A DNA stretch of 61,169 nt from an uncultured archaeon (GTDB taxonomy: Archaea; Thermoproteota; Bathyarchaeia; Bathyarchaeales; DTEX01). The stretch's first letter is position 1. Every line of letters starts with the position of its first letter. Made by a program: the position numbers and the translations under genes. Below, in pieces: positions 3,550 through 44,685 of this stretch. The notes under the pieces were generated by a model. It was not told the origin of the DNA, ran no database searches, and saw nothing but the letters and a program-made list of their open reading frames with translations. The stretch covers positions 1-61,169 of the forward strand of contig CALKGV010000027.1 in assembly GCA_938091805.1 (NCBI GenBank), written 5' to 3'.

Positions 3550-4555
3550 GAAGAGCTTCTGGGAGCTGCTTGATGAAAGCCAATGCTTAGTGAAGGATTT
3601 TATAACTGCCTTAAATAATCTTTTCAGGGAAGGGCTTATAGGCGTGGAAGGAAACACCGTCTATATAACTGAGAAGGGCTTAAAGGAAGTTAATGGAAAC
3701 ATTCTGGATTTTAAGAGCGAAATATGTGATAAATGCGGGGGCAAAGGGCTTATTCTGGATGGGAAATTTAAATATGTTTTTGAAGAGTTTAAGCGCATCG
3801 CTGAAAAGAGGCCTCCCCCAAATGCGTTTTTCTTTCAAGGATATATGCGTGAGTACGATGTAATATCTAGAATTGCCCTAATGCATAAGTATAATGATTT
3901 AGCTGATAAAGACTTCATACTTATTGGGGATGACGACCTATTAAGTGTGGCTTTAGCCCTTACAGAGCTGCCCTCAAGAATTTTTATCTTGGATATTGAT
4001 GAGAGACTAGGGGATTTCATAAAAGCCATAAGTAGGGAATATAGGTTTGAAATAGAATTCCAGAAGTACGATGTCTCAAATCCTCTACCGAAAGATCTCA
4101 GAGGCAGCTTTGACGTTTTCTCCTCAGAGCCGCTGGAAACTCTAAGCGGGCTAAAAGCCTTCATATCTAGGGGTGTAGCATGCCTAAGGGAAAACGGCGT
4201 CGGATACTTTGGGCTGTCAACAGCTGAGGCGTCGTCAAAGAAGTGGATGTCACTTGAGAAGATGCTTCTAAGAATGAACTGCGTCATAACGGACATAATC
4301 AAAGATTTCTCAAGATATAAGACGCTCTATGAAACAGTTAGCTATGAGAACTTTACTACGAAGCTGAAATTTCAAGTAGAGATGAACCCTGGAATCTACT
4401 GGTATAAATCATCACTATTTAGGTTTGAGATTATAGGTAAGCCTAAACTGTTCGTGAATCCGGATAAACATGTAACCGTTATATACGTTGATCGGCGTGA
4501 AGATATAACTAACCCATTTCTGTACGTTAATGCTAAGAAGCCTAGAGCATGCTAA
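3503..4555 (+). CDS. bpsA: DUF43-family aminopropyltransferase, likely N4-bis(aminopropyl)spermidine (branched polyamine) synthase
   Basis: About 350 aa with an N-terminal winged-helix-like part and the FILIGDDDLLSVALAL block typical of DUF43/BpsA. It overlaps speH by 47 nt. Confidence 0.65.
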   Translation: MRKVRDQMLISLLKSKKSFWELLDESQCLVKDFITALNNLFREGLIGVEGNTVYITEKGLKEVNGNILDFKSEICDKCGGKGLILDGKFKYVFEEFKRIAEKRPPPNAFFFQGYMREYDVISRIALMHKYNDLADKDFILIGDDDLLSVALALTELPSRIFILDIDERLGDFIKAISREYRFEIEFQKYDVSNPLPKDLRGSFDVFSSEPLETLSGLKAFISRGVACLRENGVGYFGLSTAEASSKKWMSLEKMLLRMNCVITDIIKDFSRYKTLYETVSYENFTTKLKFQVEMNPGIYWYKSSLFRFEIIGKPKLFVNPDKHVTVIYVDRREDITNPFLYVNAKKPRAC

Positions 4556-36633: not shown

Positions 36634-36900
36634 ATGAGTTTGAAGAAGATCGGTCAAATTCTGTATGCTGGCCCCGGCAACAAAGCTATTGCCAAGGTCG
36701 AGGTTCCTCCAGATCTCGGCGCAACAGTTTTCGACATCAGAAAAAAACCAATAGGCGTGGTTCTCGATGTTTTTGGACCCGTAAGTTCACCCTACATTGA
36801 AGTTGAAGTTAAAAGGCAGGATCCGAGGAAGGTCATTAATTATCAAATTTTTGCTCTTCCAAAATCTAAGCATATTAAGGTTAAGGGGAAGAATAAATGA
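36634..36900 (+). CDS. gar1: H/ACA RNP protein Gar1
   Basis: KKIGQILY...IGVVLDVFGPVSSPYIEV. ATG 36634 is preferred, and the stop overlaps the tfb start (ATGA). Confidence 0.85.
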   Translation: MSLKKIGQILYAGPGNKAIAKVEVPPDLGATVFDIRKKPIGVVLDVFGPVSSPYIEVEVKRQDPRKVINYQIFALPKSKHIKVKGKNK

Positions 36901-37844
36901 GCGAAGATGAGGAACGCTCTCTTCCCCCCGGCTTTAAGGACATTCAACGTTGTCCAGAGTGCGGCAGCGTAAGGCTGGCTCTGGACTACGAATCTGCAGA
37001 AATAGTTTGTATGGATTGCGGCTACGTCATAGATATGAAAATAGCTGATCAAGGGCCGGAATGGCGTGCCTTCGACAATGAGCAAAGGGATAAACGATCT
37101 AGGGTTGGTGCGCCGGTAACATTTACAATGCATGATAAGGGCTTATTTACGATGATTGATTGGCATGACAGGGATGCTTTCGGCAAAAAGTTTGATGCTG
37201 GGCAGAAAGCTCAGATATATAGGCTTAGGAAGTGGCAGAGGCGGATAAGGGTTTCAGATGCTATGGAAAGAAACTTGGCTTTTGCGCTCTCGGAGATCGC
37301 AAAAATAATTAACAATTTATCGTTGCCTAAAAGCATATTTGAAACAAGTTCTATAATCTATAGAAAGGCAGTTAAGGAACACTTGATCCGCGGCAGATCG
37401 ATTCAAGGCATAAGCGCAGCCTCAGTATATATTGCATGTAGACAATGTAACCTGCCGAGGACCCTTGACGAGATAGCGGCTGCGGCAAACATAAATAAGA
37501 GGGAGGTTGGTCGAAGCTATAGATTCCTCGTTAAGGAGCTTAATCTCTCCATACCGCCGCTTAAAGCAAGCCACTACATATCAAAATTCTCAAATCAACT
37601 TGTGATGCAGGGGAAGGTTGAGGAGATCGCAAATAAAATTTTGAGAGCTGCATCTGAGCTCAAGCTAACCTCTGGCAGAGGACCAACTGGCATAGCTGCT
37701 GCAGCGAGTTACGTGGCTTCGGTTATAGTTGGTGAAAAACGAACGCAAAGAGAGATAGCTGAAACAGCAAAAGTAACCGAGGTGACGATAAGGAATAGGT
37801 ATAAGGAGATTGTTGAGCGGCTGATGTTTATCGTAACACTTTAG
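36897..37844 (+). CDS. tfb: transcription initiation factor B (TFIIB homolog)
   Basis: N-terminal zinc ribbon CPECGS...CMDCG, B-finger and two cyclin repeats. Confidence 0.96.
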   Translation: MSEDEERSLPPGFKDIQRCPECGSVRLALDYESAEIVCMDCGYVIDMKIADQGPEWRAFDNEQRDKRSRVGAPVTFTMHDKGLFTMIDWHDRDAFGKKFDAGQKAQIYRLRKWQRRIRVSDAMERNLAFALSEIAKIINNLSLPKSIFETSSIIYRKAVKEHLIRGRSIQGISAASVYIACRQCNLPRTLDEIAAAANINKREVGRSYRFLVKELNLSIPPLKASHYISKFSNQLVMQGKVEEIANKILRAASELKLTSGRGPTGIAAAASYVASVIVGEKRTQREIAETAKVTEVTIRNRYKEIVERLMFIVTL

Positions 37845-38062: not shown

Positions 38063-38719
38063 GTGCTTGATAGATTGAGAGAATCAAACGGCCTAGACAT
38101 GATCGTTGAAATTATTGAGCGGCTTAAGAATAGCGAGGTTAAGGATTTAGTTTATGTCAGAATTAAAGAGTTTAGGGAGAACATGAATAAACCTATTTCT
38201 GAAATCTTTAAGGAGCTTTGTTTCTGTCTATTAACTGCAAACTTCAGTGCAGAGAGAAGCCTTAAAATTCAATCTGAAATAGGAGATGGCTTCTTAACCC
38301 TTCCAGAGGACGAATTGGCATGTAAGCTTGAGATGTTTGGGCATCGTTTTCCTCAGTCAAGAGCCAAATATATCGTTGAAGCAAGAAAAATGCTCGATCG
38401 GTTAAGAAATGTTCTACGTTCATCTGCGAGCAGCTGGGCAATAAGAGATTGGCTGGTTAAAAATGTTAAGGGCTTGGGCTATAAAGAGGCAAGCCACTTC
38501 CTCAGAAACATCGGCTTCATGGATCTGGCCATTGTGGATTTTCACATAGTTAATCTTTTATCTAGGTATGGATTAATTGTTAAGCCGAAGGTTCTGACGG
38601 CGAAGAAATATTTTGAAATTGAAAGGGTTCTTAAGAAGATAGCGGAAAAGGTTGGGCTTGATCTAGGGGTCCTGGATCTATACCTTTGGTATATGGAGAC
38701 GGGAAAAGTTCTTAAATAG
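38063..38719 (+). CDS. ogg: 8-oxoguanine DNA glycosylase/AP lyase (archaeal Ogg2-type HhH-GPD)
   Basis: VKGLGYKEASHFLRNIGFMDLAIVDFHI block. Confidence 0.8.
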   Translation: MLDRLRESNGLDMIVEIIERLKNSEVKDLVYVRIKEFRENMNKPISEIFKELCFCLLTANFSAERSLKIQSEIGDGFLTLPEDELACKLEMFGHRFPQSRAKYIVEARKMLDRLRNVLRSSASSWAIRDWLVKNVKGLGYKEASHFLRNIGFMDLAIVDFHIVNLLSRYGLIVKPKVLTAKKYFEIERVLKKIAEKVGLDLGVLDLYLWYMETGKVLK

Positions 38720-38889
38720 GCCTTTTAAATACCGAAAAAGAATGATTTTTATTCCCATATAAGTTTAAATTTTTTTTAAAGAGCACATATTGACGAAAGA
38801 ACGGTAAAAGTTGAACTAATTGAGAAAAAATTGATTTTTCAAATCCTTTTTAATGTTTTTCTTCCGTATTTTTCCCCGGAATTTTTGGC

Positions 38890-38905
38890 AAAAATTTATT
38901 TGATT
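38890..38905 (+). promoter_or_regulatory. TATA-like box upstream of the acidic micro-ORF
   Basis: caaaaatttatttgat lies 30-45 nt upstream of ATG 38935, and a GGTGA Shine-Dalgarno sits at 38925-38929. Confidence 0.3.
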
Positions 38906-38934
38906 GTTATATTCTTCTCATGTGGGTGAACCCC

Positions 38935-39057
38935 ATGTCAAAGAGAAAGACCCCGCCAAAGGAGGAAGAGGAAGAAGAGGAAGAGTGGGAAGAAGAGTGG
39001 GGCGAAGAGGACTGGGAAGAAGAGGAAGAGTGGGAAGAAGAGGAAGAAGAGTGGTAA
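38935..39057 (+). CDS. 40-aa hyper-acidic Trp-punctuated micro-protein (MSKRKTPPKEEEEEEEEWEEEWGEEDWEEEEEWEEEEEEW)
   Basis: Hand translation. The ATG is preceded by GGTGA with a 5-nt spacer. The frame holds 24 Glu, 1 Asp and 5 Trp, with mixed GAA/GAG codons, and ends in TAA. The ORF is too short for the supplied track, which reports an out-of-frame Arg/Gly-rich reading (38904..39116) instead. Confidence 0.5.
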   Translation: MSKRKTPPKEEEEEEEEWEEEWGEEDWEEEEEWEEEEEEW

Positions 39058-39129
39058 GCCCCATCTTTAGCTTCCCAGCATTAACTGTAATAACCCCTAT
39101 TTTTACTAATTTTTAAGAATCAGCTTCTT

Positions 39130-39879
39130 TCAGGTTTTCATGGCGTGCAGTTTTCTTATTACAGAATAAATCCTCATAAGATCTTTCGAAAAATTTAGCT
39201 TCAGCCACCTCTCATAAAAAATGGACATTTTCCTTAAGGCAACGAATTTGCTATAAAGCTTCTTTTCCTCATCTATGAGATGCTTTTTTTCTATTCGCCC
39301 CTCAATGTTTTTCTTCATCAGTTTCATGTAACTATTAAGTATGCTCTTCGTTTTTCTTTCAATTCGTATTCTAACTCTATCAAGGAGCATTTTAACAGTT
39401 TTAGCATCGTTATCAATGATGGTCATTCTGGAAAATATTTTGGCGTCTTTGTCATTCTCTTTCATAAGCGTAAACAAATAGTTTACATTAAACAGGTTAC
39501 CCTTTTTGTCATATTTATTATTGTTGTGGCAGAAAGCATATACTGAACGGCAGATTTTTATGTAGGGCGTTCTCGAAAGTAGCCATCTGATTTTCCCCCC
39601 GTCATCCTTTCTGGCATTATACACAATAATGATGAGGCTGCCGAAATCAATAATGTTCCCCTCTTCATCATATATGGGTCTCCTAATTTCACGGGTTCTT
39701 TTAAGCAGCACCGGCTGATTTTCACCTATAATTTTTAGAGCTTCCTCAACTTTGCGATTTTCCACTTCCCAGAATGAACTACATATGCGTCTGCAACCTA
39801 AAGCATTAAGCCGCCTATATATCAACCCTCTATTTTCTTTCGAAGATTTATATGCAATATAAAATACCATTGTTGACAC
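39130..39879 (-). CDS. orphan hypothetical protein in the AT-rich island, with possible tandem Cas2/VapD-like beta-alpha-beta modules and a helical tail
   Basis: 249 aa. The gene is much more AT-rich than its neighbours (18/60 G+C counted in line 39301-39360). VFYIAY..(helix)..CRRICSSFWEV and IIIVYNA..(helix)..IKICRSVYAF repeat the same pattern. Confidence 0.6.
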   Translation of the reverse strand: MSTMVFYIAYKSSKENRGLIYRRLNALGCRRICSSFWEVENRKVEEALKIIGENQPVLLKRTREIRRPIYDEEGNIIDFGSLIIIVYNARKDDGGKIRWLLSRTPYIKICRSVYAFCHNNNKYDKKGNLFNVNYLFTLMKENDKDAKIFSRMTIIDNDAKTVKMLLDRVRIRIERKTKSILNSYMKLMKKNIEGRIEKKHLIDEEKKLYSKFVALRKMSIFYERWLKLNFSKDLMRIYSVIRKLHAMKT

Positions 39880-40159
39880 CTTAAACCTCGCCGGAGTCCT
39901 CCCGTGACTGTATTGGCATAGCTATTGTAAAACCCCTATGCCTATTGTCAGCCATCTATAAATTTTTATCGTTAACCTTTTAACCACTAATTAAATATGC
40001 GTTTCCTCATTTTATTTTTGTTTCTGCTTGTGAACGCAGATATTTCAATATTGTTTTCTCATTGTTTACCGATTTATCGTAAAGTTGAGCATTTTAGATT
40101 TTTACTGAAATGTTTTACTCATGGCTAAAAATTATTTCAATGGAAACATGATGTCAGCT

Positions 40160-40802
40160 GCCCACGGATAAATCCGTGGGCTTGAAGCTTTGGGTGGTTT
40201 TGGCGCCGCCTTCCACACCCTTCATACTTCAAGACGAGCCTACTGATGGAGGCTTCCCCCAGGAATCTGGCTCCAGAAATAGTATTTTGGGACGCTTACT
40301 TTCGGAGCCGCCCTGAGGGCGATGTTGAGGTTTGCCACTCGATCTCTATCTGCTTCGCATCCGCACTTGACGCATTTGAAGTAGACGTAGCCTTTCCAGT
40401 TTTCCCTGCCGACGTATCCACAGGTATTACGTTTTCTGAGGCGTCTAAGCCCTTCTATGACAATTTTAGCGTTGAACTGCTTGGCAAATCTAACTATTTC
40501 GTTTGCTATTTGCTATATTCTCGTTTTGACATAGTTTCTCTTCATTATGAGGCTAGTCAGCTTCCAGCCATCTTTAAGGTGCTTTCTTTCCTCAACTTAG
40601 CGTCGCCAACGTAGCCGAGGGCTTCCTTAACGAAATTAAGATAGCTTTCATAGGTTTCTCTAAGCAACTTTCCCTTAACCCTTGTGAGTTTAAGAATGTT
40701 GATAGGCAAACACTTCCTCGGAAGTGTTCCTAAAAGAATTTATAAAGAAGCTTTAATTTAAATACTTACTGTCGCAATTCCTCCCATGGTTAAAACCATG
40801 GG
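40160..40802 (-). mobile_element. decayed IS200/IS605-family element (tnpB-only, internally deleted) with both subterminal hairpins
   Basis: Perfect hairpins gcccacgg-ataaat-ccgtgggc (40160-40181) and cccatggtt-aa-aaccatggg (40783-40802) flank the tnpB remnant. Confidence 0.6.
40240..40709 (-). pseudogene. tnpB: tnpB (IS605 OrfB / RNA-guided nuclease) remnant
   Basis: Minus-strand translation gives ANEIVRFAKQFNAKIVIEGL....FKCVKCGCEADRDRVANLNIALRA, which is the RuvC-II region, zinc finger and RuvC-III. An in-frame stop, a frameshift and a short N-terminal piece (LPINILKLTRVKGKLLRETYESYLNFVKEA) precede it. Total coding potential is about 150 aa, against the roughly 400 aa expected. Confidence 0.7.
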
Positions 40803-41865
40803 CTTCCTTGCGACAGAGGATTGTGAAGATAATGGGGGATGTTATATTAAGTTGAAGATTAAAGCTGGTATCCTATTCAACCTTCCGAGTAAACCTGCAA
40901 GGGGCGAGAGCATTGACTACTTAGCTGAAGCTGAGGTTCTAGACCAGGTGGATGCTGTTCAGCGCTCTCTTGAGAAACTTGGAGTTGGTTACCAATTATT
41001 CCCCATAAAAGACGATGTTGAGGATTTAGTTACGGCTTTAAAGCAATATAGGCCAGATGTTGTCGTAAATTTATGTGAGGGATTTAGGGGTAATAGTCAT
41101 CTTGAGATGCACGTGCCAGCTATCCTGGAGATTCTGGGGATACCCTATACTGGAGCGGATCCTCTAGCGTTAGGGCTATGTCAAGATAAGGGTTTAGCTA
41201 AAGACTTGCTGAGGGCACATAATGTTCCAACGCCAAAATATCAGATAATGGAAGAATCTGGTCGTTTAAGAAGCGACCTGAAGTTTCCATTGTTCATCAA
41301 GCCTTTGAAGGAGGATGCTAGCATAGGGGTGTCAAAGCGTAGCTTTGTTAGGGATTTTGGAGAATTAAAGGCTCAGGTTGATTATGTAAATAAGGTTTAT
41401 GGGCAGCCAGCATTAGTTGAAGAGTTTATTGATGGAAGAGAATTGAATGTATCAGTTTTAGGTGATAAGGATCCCCTAGTTCTGCCAATATCTGAAATAA
41501 TATTTGACCTTCAAGATGGGCTGAAAATTGTTGATTACGCATCTAAGTGGCTTAAAGAGAGTGAAGAGTATGCTAGAACTAGGCCGGTGTGTCCAGCGGA
41601 TTTAGATGATGAGGTAAGAAGGATTGTTGAAGAAGTAGCCTTAAAGGCTTATAGGGCGCTGCGCTGCAGGGATTATGCGCGGGTTGATATACGTTTGGAA
41701 AGCCGAACTAAAATCCCATACGTCTTAGAGGTTAACCCGAACCCCGACATATCGCCTGAGGCTGGCTTTAACCGGTCGCTGAAGGCTGCCAATATAACAT
41801 TTGAGGATTTCATTATGATAATATTAAATTTTGCCCTTAAACGGAGTGGAAAACAAGGTTTCTAA
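40786..41865 (+). CDS. D-Ala-D-Ala-ligase-like ATP-grasp ligase, paralog 1
   Basis: ATP-grasp core (FPLFIKPLKEDASIGV, ALVEEFIDGRELNV, RVDIRL....YVLEVNPNP). The true start is probably TTG 40852 (LKIKAGILFNL, matching MKLKVGLTYNL of the paralog), because 40786-40802 lies inside the IS hairpin. Confidence 0.85.
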   Translation: MVKTMGFLATEDCEDNGGCYIKLKIKAGILFNLPSKPARGESIDYLAEAEVLDQVDAVQRSLEKLGVGYQLFPIKDDVEDLVTALKQYRPDVVVNLCEGFRGNSHLEMHVPAILEILGIPYTGADPLALGLCQDKGLAKDLLRAHNVPTPKYQIMEESGRLRSDLKFPLFIKPLKEDASIGVSKRSFVRDFGELKAQVDYVNKVYGQPALVEEFIDGRELNVSVLGDKDPLVLPISEIIFDLQDGLKIVDYASKWLKESEEYARTRPVCPADLDDEVRRIVEEVALKAYRALRCRDYARVDIRLESRTKIPYVLEVNPNPDISPEAGFNRSLKAANITFEDFIMIILNFALKRSGKQGF

Positions 41866-42913
41866 GCGGCTTATCCTTAATTAGATCCTGGAGACCATAC
41901 CTTTTAAGGGCTTGCCAAAGAATTGTGCATATGAGCTGCTCATAGGTTAAACCAGCAGCCCTTGCTGCTTCAGGTAAACATGAATGGGCATCAGGGTTTG
42001 GGATTAAACCGGGCAGTGGATTAACCTCCAAAACCCTTGGTGTGCTTTCACTATCTAACCTCATGTCTATGCGGCATAAATCTCTGCAATTTAGAACCTT
42101 AAATGTTTGAGTGGCAATATCTTTTATTTTGTTCTCGAGATTTAACGATATGCTCGCTGGGCACTCGAATATGTCTAGGGGTTTTTCCGGCGTATCCCAA
42201 ACCCATTTAGCCTCATAGGAGTATATTGGGCTGGCGCCGTTTGGCAGCTTATCAATTCGTATCTCAACTATTGGTAAAACAATCGGGTTTTCATTTCCAA
42301 TCAATCCAACTGTAAATTCTCTTCCAGGAAGGAACTCCTCAACAATGGCCGGCTGATTATAGGTTTCTATGATCCATAAAACCTGTTTTCTAAGGTTTTG
42401 CTCATCCTTAACTAGGGAGCTACTCCTAATGCCTTTGCTTGATCCCTCGGCTAGGGGCTTAACTACAAGTGGAAAATTTAAACAATCGCTAAGCTTTTCA
42501 TCAGCCCGCCTGAAAACCTGAAAGTTTGGGGATGGAATGCCGTAAGCGCTTAGGATTTTATGCGTTAAAGCCTTGTTTAGGCATATGGCAAGCGTATCTG
42601 GTCCAGAACCAGTATAGGGTATTCCAAGCATCTCTAGAATTACCGGTATATGTGACTCCCTGGACTCGCCACGGAAACCCTCAGCGATATTGAAAACTAT
42701 ATCCGGCTTCAACCTTCGAAGTTTACTGTAAGCATCCTCATTAGCTTCGATTTTTATAACTTTGCATCCTCCCATCTTTAGGGCCGAGGCTATAGCATCA
42801 ACGGTTTCTTCATCATCAAATTCTATGTAGAAATCCTCAGGTAAGTTTTCGTTAGCGCTAACTTTTCTTCTTAAATTATATGTAAGCCCAACCTTGAGTT
42901 TCATTGCGCACAT
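41837..42913 (-). CDS. D-Ala-D-Ala-ligase-like ATP-grasp ligase, paralog 2
   Basis: FPLVVKPLAEGSSKGI, AIVEEFLPGREFTV and RIDMRL....RVLEVNPLPG. The 3' end overlaps paralog 1 by 29 nt in convergent orientation. Confidence 0.85.
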   Translation of the reverse strand: MCAMKLKVGLTYNLRRKVSANENLPEDFYIEFDDEETVDAIASALKMGGCKVIKIEANEDAYSKLRRLKPDIVFNIAEGFRGESRESHIPVILEMLGIPYTGSGPDTLAICLNKALTHKILSAYGIPSPNFQVFRRADEKLSDCLNFPLVVKPLAEGSSKGIRSSSLVKDEQNLRKQVLWIIETYNQPAIVEEFLPGREFTVGLIGNENPIVLPIVEIRIDKLPNGASPIYSYEAKWVWDTPEKPLDIFECPASISLNLENKIKDIATQTFKVLNCRDLCRIDMRLDSESTPRVLEVNPLPGLIPNPDAHSCLPEAARAAGLTYEQLICTILWQALKRYGLQDLIKDKPLRNLVFHSV

Positions 42914-42954
42914 GCCCGCTGATGCCCAGCCTTAATATTCCGTTATACTACTCC

Positions 42955-44052
42955 TCATTTAACTGCTCTTTGTTGAATCTTGAGCAGTATGCGCTCCTCT
43001 TCTTCGGCTGGTATCTGCGGGTAAACATATATTTTTCCCTCATAGTTCCTTAAAACAACCTTTTCATCATCTATAGATAAAATGTAATCCGGCTGTAAGG
43101 GTATTTTCCCCCCGCCTCCAGGGGCATCGATAACGAAGCGCGGTATAGCTAGCCCCGATGTCCATCCGATGAGCGCTTCAAGTATTTTAATTCCAACTTC
43201 GACTCTCGTCCTGAAGTGATATGTGCCTTTAACAAGGTCCATTTGAAAGAGATAGTAGGGCTTTACACGAATCTTAAGTAGCTTCTGAAAAAGCTTCTTC
43301 ATTGTTTCAGGGTTATCATTAACTCCCCTAAGGAGAACAGATTGATTCCCAAGAGGTATGCCGGCGTCAGCCAGTAACCCGCAAGCCCTCTCGCTTTCCT
43401 CAGTTATTTCATTAGGATGCTCAAAGTGCACGTTCACGTATAATGGATGGTATTTTTTAAGAATTTTACATAATCTAGGCGTTATTCTCTGCGGCAACGT
43501 GCATGGAATCCTTGAACCTATTCTCAGTATTTCGACGTGAGGGATGGCCCTGAGTTTCTTGAGTAAAAACTCTATCGTGTCGTCTGGCAACATGAAGGGG
43601 TCTCCACCTGAGAGGAGAACATCTCTGATGCCAGTGTTCTCCCTTATATAATTGATCTGCGCCAGATACAAATCTTTAGAGAAGTTAATGAGGGGCTTCC
43701 CAACTTTTCTTTTTCTCGTGCAGAATCTGCAGTATGTGGCGCAGCTATTTGAGATGCACATTAAAACCCTGTCTGGATACCTATGAACCAAGCCTGGTAT
43801 TGGGCTTTCCTCCTCCTCGCTCAGCGGGTCATCATATCCATACGGGTCTTGGAGCTCAAGCGGGCTTGGGACGCATTGCTTCCAGATTGGATCCTCAACC
43901 TCTTCTATGAGGTCAAAGTAGTATCTTGAAATAAACATCGGATATTTCTCAACAACAGCCTTGATGGGGTTTATGTCGACGTTAAATTTATCTAAAATCT
44001 GCTCCGGTTTAGTTATGCTATTTTTAAGTATACTTTTCCAATCTTCTATCAT
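42955..44052 (-). CDS. KamA-family radical-SAM/PLP aminomutase (lysine 2,3-aminomutase-like, short form)
   Basis: CATYCRFCTRKR is the CxxxCxxC motif. SGGDPF, LLRGVNDN and overall KamA pattern are present. The protein is 365 aa and lacks the long C-terminal domain of clostridial KamA. Confidence 0.85.
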   Translation of the reverse strand: MIEDWKSILKNSITKPEQILDKFNVDINPIKAVVEKYPMFISRYYFDLIEEVEDPIWKQCVPSPLELQDPYGYDDPLSEEEESPIPGLVHRYPDRVLMCISNSCATYCRFCTRKRKVGKPLINFSKDLYLAQINYIRENTGIRDVLLSGGDPFMLPDDTIEFLLKKLRAIPHVEILRIGSRIPCTLPQRITPRLCKILKKYHPLYVNVHFEHPNEITEESERACGLLADAGIPLGNQSVLLRGVNDNPETMKKLFQKLLKIRVKPYYLFQMDLVKGTYHFRTRVEVGIKILEALIGWTSGLAIPRFVIDAPGGGGKIPLQPDYILSIDDEKVVLRNYEGKIYVYPQIPAEEEERILLKIQQRAVK

Positions 44053-44118
44053 TCTTCTTTACGCGCGCTCACTGTAGCACGCTTAGATGCTACGAAAATA
44101 TATGTGTGCACAGCACAT

Positions 44119-44130
44119 TATATATTTAAA
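44119..44130 (-). promoter_or_regulatory. TATA-like box upstream of the kamA-like gene
   Basis: The minus strand reads tttaaatatata about 70 nt upstream of ATG 44052. An adjacent TGTGCACA palindrome lies at 44104-44111. Confidence 0.3.
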
Positions 44131-44144
44131 GTTTTCTATCAATT

Positions 44145-44170
44145 CTTCTAGACTTCTTAAAGTCTAGAAG
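44145..44170. terminator. perfect 10-bp hairpin directly after the GNAT stop codon
   Basis: cttctagact (44145-44154), loop tcttaa, agtctagaag (44161-44170), 6 nt from the GNAT stop. Confidence 0.4.
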
Positions 44171-44175
44171 TCTTC

Positions 44176-44685
44176 TTAAAGATTCAGGACGTAAACGTCC
44201 TCACTGTAATATGTGCCGTCTTTAAGAATTCTCCTCACGCCTTCAAGCTTAAATCCGGCCTTCTCAGCCACATGTTTCATGGCGCTGTTCTCCTCAAGAG
44301 TTTCTATGATCAATTTTCTAATGCCCCTTCCTTTAGCCAACTTGATGGATTCTTTTACGAGGCTTGTTGCAACGCCCTTCCCCCAGTAATTTGGATGCAC
44401 GCTTATGCCTATGCTTGCAGCTTTCCCAGATTCTTCGTTAATGCGCCATAAGGCTAAGAAACCGATCGTCCGTCCTTCATGTTTAGCTATCAGAACATCT
44501 GCAAGATTGTTGTTTTGAAGATCCATGAAAAACTTCCTATACTCTTCAAGTTCCTTTTCAAAGTCTTCATCCGCATAATCAATAAGCCATTTTTTAACCA
44601 TAGGGTGGCGTTCAATCTCTACGATAGATTTAACGTCCTCATCCCTAAGAGGGGTCTGCTTGGCATTAATAATTTCAAATCTCAA
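44176..44685 (-). CDS. GNAT-family N-acetyltransferase (RimJ/RimL-like)
   Basis: VHPNYWGKGVATSLV acetyl-CoA binding block in a 169-aa protein. Confidence 0.85.
   Translation of the reverse strand: MRFEIINAKQTPLRDEDVKSIVEIERHPMVKKWLIDYADEDFEKELEEYRKFFMDLQNNNLADVLIAKHEGRTIGFLALWRINEESGKAASIGISVHPNYWGKGVATSLVKESIKLAKGRGIRKLIIETLEENSAMKHVAEKAGFKLEGVRRILKDGTYYSEDVYVLNL

Follow-up and report, generated by a model that had tools for sequence, protein, structure and literature searches.

Does a 40-codon open reading frame (ORF) dominated by glutamate and punctuated by tryptophan represent a gene, and if so, what could its product do? The question is raised by a 61,169-nt contig from an uncultured archaeon of the Bathyarchaeia (GenBank assembly GCA_938091805.1, contig CALKGV010000027.1; this whole stretch is referred to as the window), in which such a micro-ORF occupies the 410-bp gap between a gene for an AGOG-type 8-oxoguanine glycosylase and a convergent ORF of 249 amino acids (hyp249). 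The comparisons reported here indicate that the micro-ORF is almost certainly a real coding gene, and it is linked to the hyp249 gene family. With a probability of roughly 0.4, we read its product as a disordered polyanionic mimic of nucleic acid that binds to hyp249 on its basic surface, a proposal based on gene neighbourhood and charge. The locus has the following layout.

38063..38719, + strand: gene for the AGOG-type 8-oxoguanine glycosylase, 5' of the micro-ORF (Pfam Ogg-HhH, 3e-63; NCBIfam N-glycosylase/DNA lyase)
38887..38906, + strand: B-recognition element (BRE)/TATA-like element GGCAAAAATTTATTTGATTG with the core TTTATTTG at 38895-38902, read directly from the sequence and kept in orthologues
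38925..38929, + strand: Shine-Dalgarno-like GGTGA, 5 nt 5' of the ATG, invariant in window-type orthologues
38935..39057, + strand: coding sequence of the microprotein (evidence: translation, identical peptide called in GCA_038850145.1, in-frame length changes, third-position substitutions)
39100-39104 and 39110-39114, + strand: two T5 runs resembling archaeal terminators; oligo-T is kept in orthologues
39130..39879, - strand: hyp249, the convergent 249-aa gene, whose window copy has no Pfam or NCBIfam match (evidence: ORF, profile, AlphaFold2 (AF2) and Foldseek)

The frame at 38935..39057 (+) starts with ATG, ends with TAA (39055-39057) and translates to MSKRKTPPKEEEEEEEEWEEEWGEEDWEEEEEWEEEEEEW. 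The composition given in an earlier note on this DNA was reproduced exactly, with 24 Glu (14 GAA and 10 GAG codons), 1 Asp and 5 Trp. A basic head, MSKRKTPPK, is followed by a Glu tail that carries the five Trp residues. The predicted microprotein has a mass of 5.3 kDa, a net charge of about -21, a Glu content of 62% and no Cys; nowhere else in the 61-kb window are 8 or more of 12 residues acidic. The TATA-like box, the GGTGA located 5 nt upstream and the oligo-T after the stop, to which the earlier note had also pointed, are all present. Specifically, the BRE/TATA-like stretch GCAAAAATTTATTTGATTG spans 38888-38906 and the element is a putative promoter, GGTGA is presumably complementary to the 3' end of 16S rRNA, and the T5 runs between 39100 and 39114 would serve as terminator. 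No hairpin terminator was found in a scan for sigma-70 promoters and hairpin terminators, which is uninformative for an archaeon. An in-frame ATG further upstream, at 38920, would yield 45 aa, but its overlap with the ribosome-binding site and its loss of frame in the corresponding locus of GCA_038850145.1 (L001) identify 38935 as the start.

Relatives of the micro-ORF were collected along several routes. An AGOG protein scan of species-representative genomes resulted in 80 loci, and in the five closest Bathyarchaeia loci (AGOG 64-91% identical) an orthologue lies immediately 3' of the AGOG gene. Contigs with a homologue of hyp249 contributed further members. When a degenerate DNA pattern covering the N-terminus was used, six metagenome matches were obtained, all of them true members, and no match in the viral contigs scanned. 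The window-type variants (n = 10, 32-43 aa) come from related Bathyarchaeia genomes and metagenomes; seven of them, with 38, 39, 40, 41, 42, 43, and 43 aa, directly follow the AGOG gene, and all length differences amount to whole codons. GCA_038850145.1, with DNA about 92% identical to the window, has a gene call for exactly the same 40-aa product. A run of N at 3407-3513 of L001 is an assembly gap inside the AGOG-to-peptide intergenic region, so spacer lengths of this assembly are unreliable. The relatives identified through flanking genes are all metagenome-assembled Bathyarchaeia, many of them from hot springs according to their isolate names. The peptides are listed by locus.

Window, L001 and L002: MSKRKTPPKEEEEEEEEWEEEWGEEDWEEEEEWEEEEEEW
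L088-L090: MSKRKSPPK..., remainder as in the window
L106: MSKRRKTIPEEEEEEEEEEEWEDWGEEDWEEEEWEEEEEEEEW
L004: MSRRKTPPKEEEEEEEEEWEDWGEEEEWEEEEEEWEEEEEW
L005: MSRRKTPPKEEEEEEEEEWEDWGEEEEEWEEEEEWEEEEEEW
L086: MSRKKTPPKEEEEEEEEEEWEDWGEEEEEWEEEEWEEEEEEEW
L003: MSKEKTPLSEEEWGEEEDWEEWEEEEWDEAWEDEEWEEE
L085: the L003 version less one Glu
L105: MSKKKPPVKKKKEEEEEEEEEEWDWEEEEEAEEEEEEEEW
L104: MSKEDDEEEEDWKEDPDEEEEDWNWEEDEEDE

The substitutions among these sequences follow the Glu frame. Between the window and L001, five differences were found, all at third positions; four are synonymous and one converts TAA to TAG. The same differences cause no amino acid change in the Glu frame and four changes in the Arg/Gly frame as well as in each other non-trivial frame. 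The out-of-frame Arg/Gly reading described in the earlier note exists (38904..39116, open over the same tract) and is not the conserved frame. Comparison of the window with L088 revealed four synonymous changes and the conservative replacement T6S, with a divergence of 4% in the coding sequence versus 17% in the 60 nt upstream. For L005, the differences to the window by codon position 1/2/3 were 2/3/18. In deep comparisons, the proportion of non-synonymous differences (pN) was 0.04-0.2 with synonymous sites saturated, so that the synonymous rate (dS, Nei-Gojobori) was not estimable for deep pairs. The spacings of the internal DNA repeat in the window (9, 12, 15, 18, 9, and 12 nt) are without exception multiples of 3. 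Furthermore, the codons GAC and GAT, with a pyrimidine at position 3, occur in L003, L093, L096, and L104. Constraint on a purine tract alone would neither hold G and A fixed at the first two codon positions, as observed, nor tolerate these pyrimidines at the third. The antisense poly-Ser and Leu/Pro frames were rejected; they have no conserved start, and their changes are non-synonymous or trivially tied to the Glu frame.

The flanking signals are similarly conserved. A (G)CAAA-NN-TTTATT(T)G core is kept 36-45 nt 5' of the start codon in nine of nine distinct window-type sequences, GGTGA is unchanged 5-8 nt 5' of the ATG in all window-type orthologues, and a T5-T7 run follows about 5-60 nt past the stop in every orthologue, at a position that is not fixed. 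The view of the earlier note that selection maintains the Glu/Trp protein frame is thus borne out by synonymous or third-position substitutions, by length changes that are all in frame, and by the retention of ATG, ribosome-binding site and frame among the relatives.

At the protein level, the members share the basic head MS-K/R-K/R-K-T/S-P-P-K, an opening run of 3-11 Glu, and a W-x2-3-WG or WG motif. Three to six Trp residues stand 2-8 acidic residues apart and a C-terminal Trp is usual. Apart from degenerate copies in L098 and L091, the members contain 58-74% Asp plus Glu and two to six Trp. The number of Trp residues is conserved; their exact positions, spacing and helical phase are not. 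Retention of composition, charge and Trp number without retention of positions points to a disordered "sticker-and-spacer" sequence rather than a folded domain, and the peptide is probably a disordered polyanion, or one that turns helical on binding. A conserved amphipathic helix was considered and rejected, as the helical phases of Trp vary across the orthologues.

Database searches with the peptide returned no relatives. A phmmer search against 5.8 billion proteins produced 128 word-sharing candidates, none with E ≤ 10, and the search against 1.84 billion cluster representatives produced no match. The same was true for the PDB sequence search and for scans with Pfam (E ≤ 1) and NCBIfam. One NCBI assembly does call the exact peptide as a gene, but the protein collection lacks it. 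These negatives are weak evidence on homology, because composition correction removes low-complexity sequences; phmmer was blind even to true relatives of the peptide. The searchable literature contained nothing relevant on the peptide motifs, archaeal DNA mimics or archaeal DSS1, and no description of the microprotein family or of its pairing with hyp249. The statement of the earlier note that no described family has this architecture is in line with these results.

The convergent neighbour has the opposite charge. The window copy of hyp249 has an isoelectric point of 10.0 and a net charge of +27, and the conserved start MVFY suggests that its real start is the ATG at 39870. The family of proteins of about 250 aa comprised 47 clusters when searched with a single query and 307 when searched with a profile, and every member with a named source belongs to the Bathyarchaeia; Pfam has no model for this family. 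An AF2 model built on a 39-sequence alignment (predicted local distance difference test score (pLDDT) 88, predicted template modelling score (pTM) 0.84) consists of two ferredoxin-like alpha/beta units (residues ~1-155) and three long helices (159-248). The top Foldseek matches were Cas2 proteins (SSO8090, SSO1404, PF1117, and Cas2 of T. onnurineus) and PaaX, at a weak E of about 0.05; no PDB match reached E ≤ 0.001. PADLOC Cas2 models matched 17 of the 39 members via the second unit (best E 7e-7) and did not match the window copy. The profile search against PDB sequences gave coiled-coil noise only. Among the 39 sequences, no Asp, Glu or His is invariant or near-invariant, which makes a nuclease site of the Cas2/VapD type unlikely. 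No CRISPR array was found in the window, and hyp249 does not lie beside cas genes. The protein seems to derive from Cas2 and to be used in a non-CRISPR role.

The micro-ORF gene is linked to the hyp249 gene family. An acidic Trp micro-ORF adjoins a hyp249 homologue in at least nine gene contexts, either convergent or in tandem, and in nearly all loci read it lies 70-350 nt from the hyp249 3' end (1.3 kb in L104). Among the hyp249 loci with enough flanking DNA, all except one (L103) have an acidic Trp micro-ORF at the 3' end. Convergent pairs are found in the window, L001, L002, L088-90, L004, L005, L086, L104, L105, and L106, in which hyp249 shares 49% identity or more with the window copy. 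In the tandem pairs (L091, L093, L096, L098, L100, and L101), hyp249 is about 34-38% identical to the window copy and the micro-ORF has its own TATA-like box, with a CTTATYTGRAT box preceding the acidic ORF. The acidic micro-ORFs of the tandem loci read as follows.

L093: MPIRYKIEEDEEWEDDEWEEDEDSEEEDDWS
L096: MISWTYEAEDEEWEEEDEEEEDDEDEW
L101: MSGGAKEEEEEDWEEEDEEEEEW
L100: VRFEEEEEEEEEWTEEGW
L098: ...ICKAEEEWEEEEEQEEAEEEPKWEEEW
L091: a weakly acidic version

The tandem loci are similar to the window type in their promoter box and in the sequence just past the stop (CCCC...AACCCC), which argues for orthology and a single inversion. The remaining neighbours differ wholly among the loci (AGOG/TFB, thermosome, NucS/TIP49, acyl-CoA dehydrogenase/TBP, MgtE/PhoU, or methyltransferase). 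Descent by itself hardly explains why the adjacency outlasts an inversion and the replacement of every other neighbour. Across the loci, hyp249 proteins carry charges of +13 to +29 and micro-ORF peptides of -6 to -24.

In L098 and L099 (~4006-4101), ATC stands where the ATG of the acidic micro-ORF is expected; the sole canonical in-frame start overlaps the TATA-like box, and an out-of-frame ATG opens an Arg/Gly frame instead. A non-canonical start, gene decay, or a frame switch are possible explanations.

A functional tie to the AGOG glycosylase was rejected, as the two genes are adjacent in one syntenic clade only and about 75 other archaeal AGOG loci are without such an ORF. The AGOG loci of other archaea, about 800 kb in total, contained a single unrelated ORF of like composition, at 483-584 of the Micrarchaeota contig L072. 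It encodes MKFWIQDEDWDEDEDTEDEEEWDDEDWDEEEES, is preceded by the ribosome-binding-like site GGGTGGA, and has no hyp249 nearby. Acidic Trp micro-ORFs may have originated repeatedly or may extend beyond the group described here.

In the tandem loci, a second conserved micro-ORF with a strong GGAGGTGA ribosome-binding site begins 30-45 nt past the acidic one. It is absent from the window clade.

L096, 4129-4191: MSEKKPKKKPEKKKEEKKEW
L098, 4145-4210: MSEKPKKKPAKKKKEEKEEEW
L101, 4113-4169: MSEKKKKPKKKEEKKEEW
L100, 4121-4183: VTEKKKKGKGKKKKEEEKEY
L091, 6122-6172: MVKKKKPAKKKEEKEW

The Lys-rich head of the second micro-ORF resembles the head of the window-type peptide, and the L105 product, MSKKKPPVKKKK followed by a Glu/Trp tail, looks intermediate. 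Both micropeptides, Glu/Trp and Lys/Glu, usually end in Glu-Trp.

The following mechanism would account for the linkage. As a stand-alone gene that has a promoter, a ribosome-binding site and a terminator to itself, the micro-ORF would give rise to a microprotein of about 5 kDa. The peptide would bind a basic, probably nucleic-acid-binding, surface of hyp249, with Glu carboxylates in the place of phosphates and Trp indoles in the place of bases. By occupying or shielding the nucleic-acid-binding surface of hyp249, it could act as a regulator, chaperone or neutraliser. The DNA-mimic idea is plausible, with the adjacent basic Cas2-like protein as the candidate target. A broader proposal, which we put forward only as a tentative one, is that the Bathyarchaeia possess a previously undescribed module in which a basic protein, derived from Cas2 and recruited outside CRISPR, is joined by low-complexity micropeptides, one a Glu/Trp polyanion and the other a Lys/Glu polycation present in many lineages. 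In such a module, the Glu/Trp peptide may imitate single-stranded nucleic acid and gate the nucleic-acid binding of that protein.

Several observations weigh against the binding of hyp249 by the peptide. Every step past "conserved gene" draws on gene neighbourhood and charge. The clade of L003, L084, and L085 keeps the peptide after AGOG with no hyp249 in the 4-6 kb read, and conversely the hyp249 homologue of L103 has no micro-ORF in the available 670 nt. In the window clade, the block FGGY-S8e-SRP19-Gar1-TFB-AGOG-peptide-hyp249-Ddl is wholly syntenic, so that adjacency there says little. Since the two genes are convergent in the window and have separate promoters, they do not form an operon. 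In L098 and L099, the orthologous position offers no canonical start codon, and the acidity of the L091 version is weak. The kinship between hyp249 and Cas2 is remote (Foldseek E ~0.05; no model matched by the window copy). Finally, AF2 predicted one helix (residues 8-39, pLDDT 83) for the single peptide sequence, which carries little weight, as helical predictions are the usual outcome for poly-Glu.

Among the alternatives, a free-standing, general polyanionic disordered protein fares best, and we regard it as doubtful rather than improbable. It would serve as a solubility or heat shield, as a chaperone of histones or basic proteins, or as a buffer of cations or polyamines, and its adjacency to hyp249 and AGOG would be inherited gene order. 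Consistent with such a role, the gene has its own promoter and terminator, selection acts on composition and not on positions, the L003 clade keeps the peptide without hyp249 nearby, and the source organisms are metagenome-assembled genomes from hot springs (judging from their isolate names). Inherited order is difficult to reconcile with an adjacency to hyp249 that persists over at least nine contexts, an inversion and a full turnover of neighbours, down to a hyp249 identity of 35-37%.

A toxin-antitoxin-like pair, in which hyp249 is a nuclease toxin of the Cas2/VapD type and the acidic peptide its neutralising antitoxin, is improbable. The charges of the two products are complementary and hyp249 is a remote relative of Cas2. 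VapD toxins are Cas2 homologues that are neutralised by the small proteins VapX, VapW, and VapY, partly via acidic-basic contacts (PMC11980593). However, the catalytic Asp of the first strand in Cas2 and VapD is missing in hyp249 (MVFYVAY; GSLxIxxY), and no other acidic residue or His is near-invariant in the 39 sequences. The hyp249 family is also single-copy-like, vertically inherited and syntenic throughout the Bathyarchaeia rather than patchy or mobile, and the genes have separate promoters, being convergent in the window clade, instead of forming a co-transcribed two-gene operon.

Translation of acidic runs destabilises ribosomes, a phenomenon described in bacteria as intrinsic ribosome destabilisation. 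The micro-ORF could accordingly be a cis-acting sensor that reports the supply of Mg2+ or of Glu- and Trp-tRNA and, like a leader peptide, controls a gene located downstream. Runs of 8-11 Glu near the N-terminus would suit this function, as would the second micro-ORF with its strong GGAGGTGA site within 30-45 nt in the tandem loci, and the MgtE and PhoU/TrkA_C genes that flank the module in L100, L101, and L103. We consider it quite improbable, given that the window clade has no downstream gene on the same strand and that oligo-T followed by a convergent gene is found in all window-type loci. Additionally, the peptide itself is conserved in its head motif, WG motif and Trp number, and not just in its acidic run.

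The earlier note had compared the acidic tail to that of the LysW/ArgW carrier proteins and had raised the co-occurrence with the KamA/ATP-grasp cluster. A LysW-like carrier, a ribosomal peptide precursor or some other substrate for the ATP-grasp ligases nearby would be suggested by the two Ddl-like ATP-grasp genes, the KamA-family gene and the GNAT gene located 1.7-5.7 kb away in the window clade, and by the EWGE string inside the peptide. We rejected this reading and regard it as very improbable, because the peptide has no zinc ribbon and no Cys, its EWGE is internal, with a variable C-terminus and no terminal Glu, and the ligases are Ddl-type enzymes below all equivalog cut-offs and not of the LysX/RimK type. 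Furthermore, the surroundings of the micro-ORF in eight other contexts (L003, L091, L093, L096, L098, L100, L101, and L105) contain neither ATP-grasp nor KamA-family genes. A graspetide or other precursor of a ribosomally synthesized and post-translationally modified peptide was discarded for similar reasons, as the Ddl-like ATP-grasp genes are at least 1.7 kb off, across a gene on the opposite strand, and absent in most contexts.

Just as slim is the chance that the tract is no protein gene at all but a purine-rich DNA or RNA element or a slippage repeat, open in several frames by chance: all six frames are indeed open over it, because strings of GAA, GAG, and TGG make no stop codons, but its three-base periodicity is strict, variation including pyrimidines is confined to position 3, ATG, ribosome-binding site and stop are conserved in the Glu frame only, other frames take non-synonymous changes, and neither an Rfam family (whole window at the gathering threshold and a local E-value scan) nor structure in excess of shuffled sequence (z = 0.01) was found.

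The wider surroundings of the micro-ORF yielded some additional observations. Upstream genes in the window are of the housekeeping type (S8e, SRP19, Gar1, and TFB), and the downstream genes encode two Ddl-like ATP-grasp proteins, a KamA-family aminomutase, a GNAT protein, a PIN protein, and PdxA. The region 40154-40823 is missing in the close relative L001. It contains, at ~40240-40450 (-), a zinc-ribbon fragment of the TnpB/Cas12f type (Pfam PF07282, E = 5e-5, below cut-off), and is probably a decayed IS200/605 element. At the equivalent position, L005 and L003 carry a gene for an MFS-kinase fusion. The two Ddl-like ATP-grasp genes are divergently related and overlap tail to tail (40786..41865, + strand; 41837..42913, - strand). 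The aminomutase gene within 40786-44685, with the GNAT gene beside it, scored nearly equally with the models for lysine and glutamate 2,3-aminomutase, and all Ddl-like, KamA-family and GNAT genes of this region remained below NCBIfam equivalog cut-offs. They could constitute a pathway for a beta-amino acid (osmolyte or peptide). Basal transcription factor genes were also seen near the module: TBP lies 0.4-1.2 kb downstream in L098 (5309-5938) and L101 (4500-4766), and TFB about 1 kb upstream in the window (36897-37844). These neighbours, like the MgtE and PhoU/TrkA_C genes, may be a coincidence.

Genes of fewer than 50 codons are routinely missed in annotation, and low-complexity ones are also filtered by homology tools; the micro-ORF illustrates that a low-complexity ORF can be under clear purifying selection. 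Its pairing with hyp249 ties the peptide to a clade-wide, uncharacterised Cas2-derived protein in the Bathyarchaeia, which rank among the uncultured archaea of highest abundance. Should the peptide indeed function as a nucleic-acid mimic or neutraliser of this protein, it would represent an unusually minimal form of regulation by a disordered polyanion, with two residue types in about 40 aa, and would provide a first functional handle on the 307-cluster hyp249 family. Otherwise, it nonetheless constitutes a new family of conserved archaeal microproteins that deserves annotation.

Several known systems resemble the micro-ORF product in part. Like LysW and ArgW, it is a small acidic protein from archaea, and its EWGE resembles their EDWGE tail. 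However, the N-terminal four-Cys zinc ribbon of LysW/ArgW (Zn_ribbon_LysW) is missing, EWGE is located at residues 21-24, the C-terminus is mostly EEW (otherwise EEE, EDE, or DWS), and the micro-ORF has no LysX/LysZ/LysY/LysJ/LysK context. Leader peptides of the MgtL type are likewise short ORFs with a long acidic run near the N-terminus; they differ in that the window clade has no downstream gene in the transcription unit and that the peptide itself is conserved. The VapD-VapX/VapW/VapY modules (PMC11980593) similarly place a Cas2-family protein beside a small protein that could bind it, in part electrostatically. In contrast to these, hyp249 has two ferredoxin-like domains plus a helical domain without conserved catalytic acidic residues, the hyp249 module is vertical rather than mobile, and the place of a folded antitoxin is taken by a polyanion of low complexity.

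DNA mimics such as Ugi, Ocr, T7 gp5.9, and several anti-CRISPRs share the small size and the high density of negative charge, and the same action is proposed for the peptide. The known mimics are mostly folded, with a fixed geometry of carboxylates, and usually phage-encoded, whereas the peptide is chromosomal, vertically inherited, probably disordered, and has Trp as a regular second component. DSS1/Sem1 (PF05160) is also very small, with a start of MS plus basic residues and acidic stretches broken by Trp or Phe; it docks acidic-aromatic segments into basic pockets of its partners and has been described as a DNA mimic toward RPA. Pairwise BLAST of the peptide against DSS1/Sem1 gave 15 bits (E = 0.024 for a single comparison), a similarity at the level of composition only, and homology is not assessable because the sequence is so low in complexity. 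The peptide differs in being archaeal and more extreme, without a PF05160 match (Pfam E ≤ 1) and without a C-terminal helix, and the loci read showed no partner that has a PCI domain or resembles BRCA2. The microprotein is closest in kind to small acidic disordered regulators and DNA mimics, from which it is set apart by its extreme two-letter composition, its archaeal chromosomal setting, and its partner.

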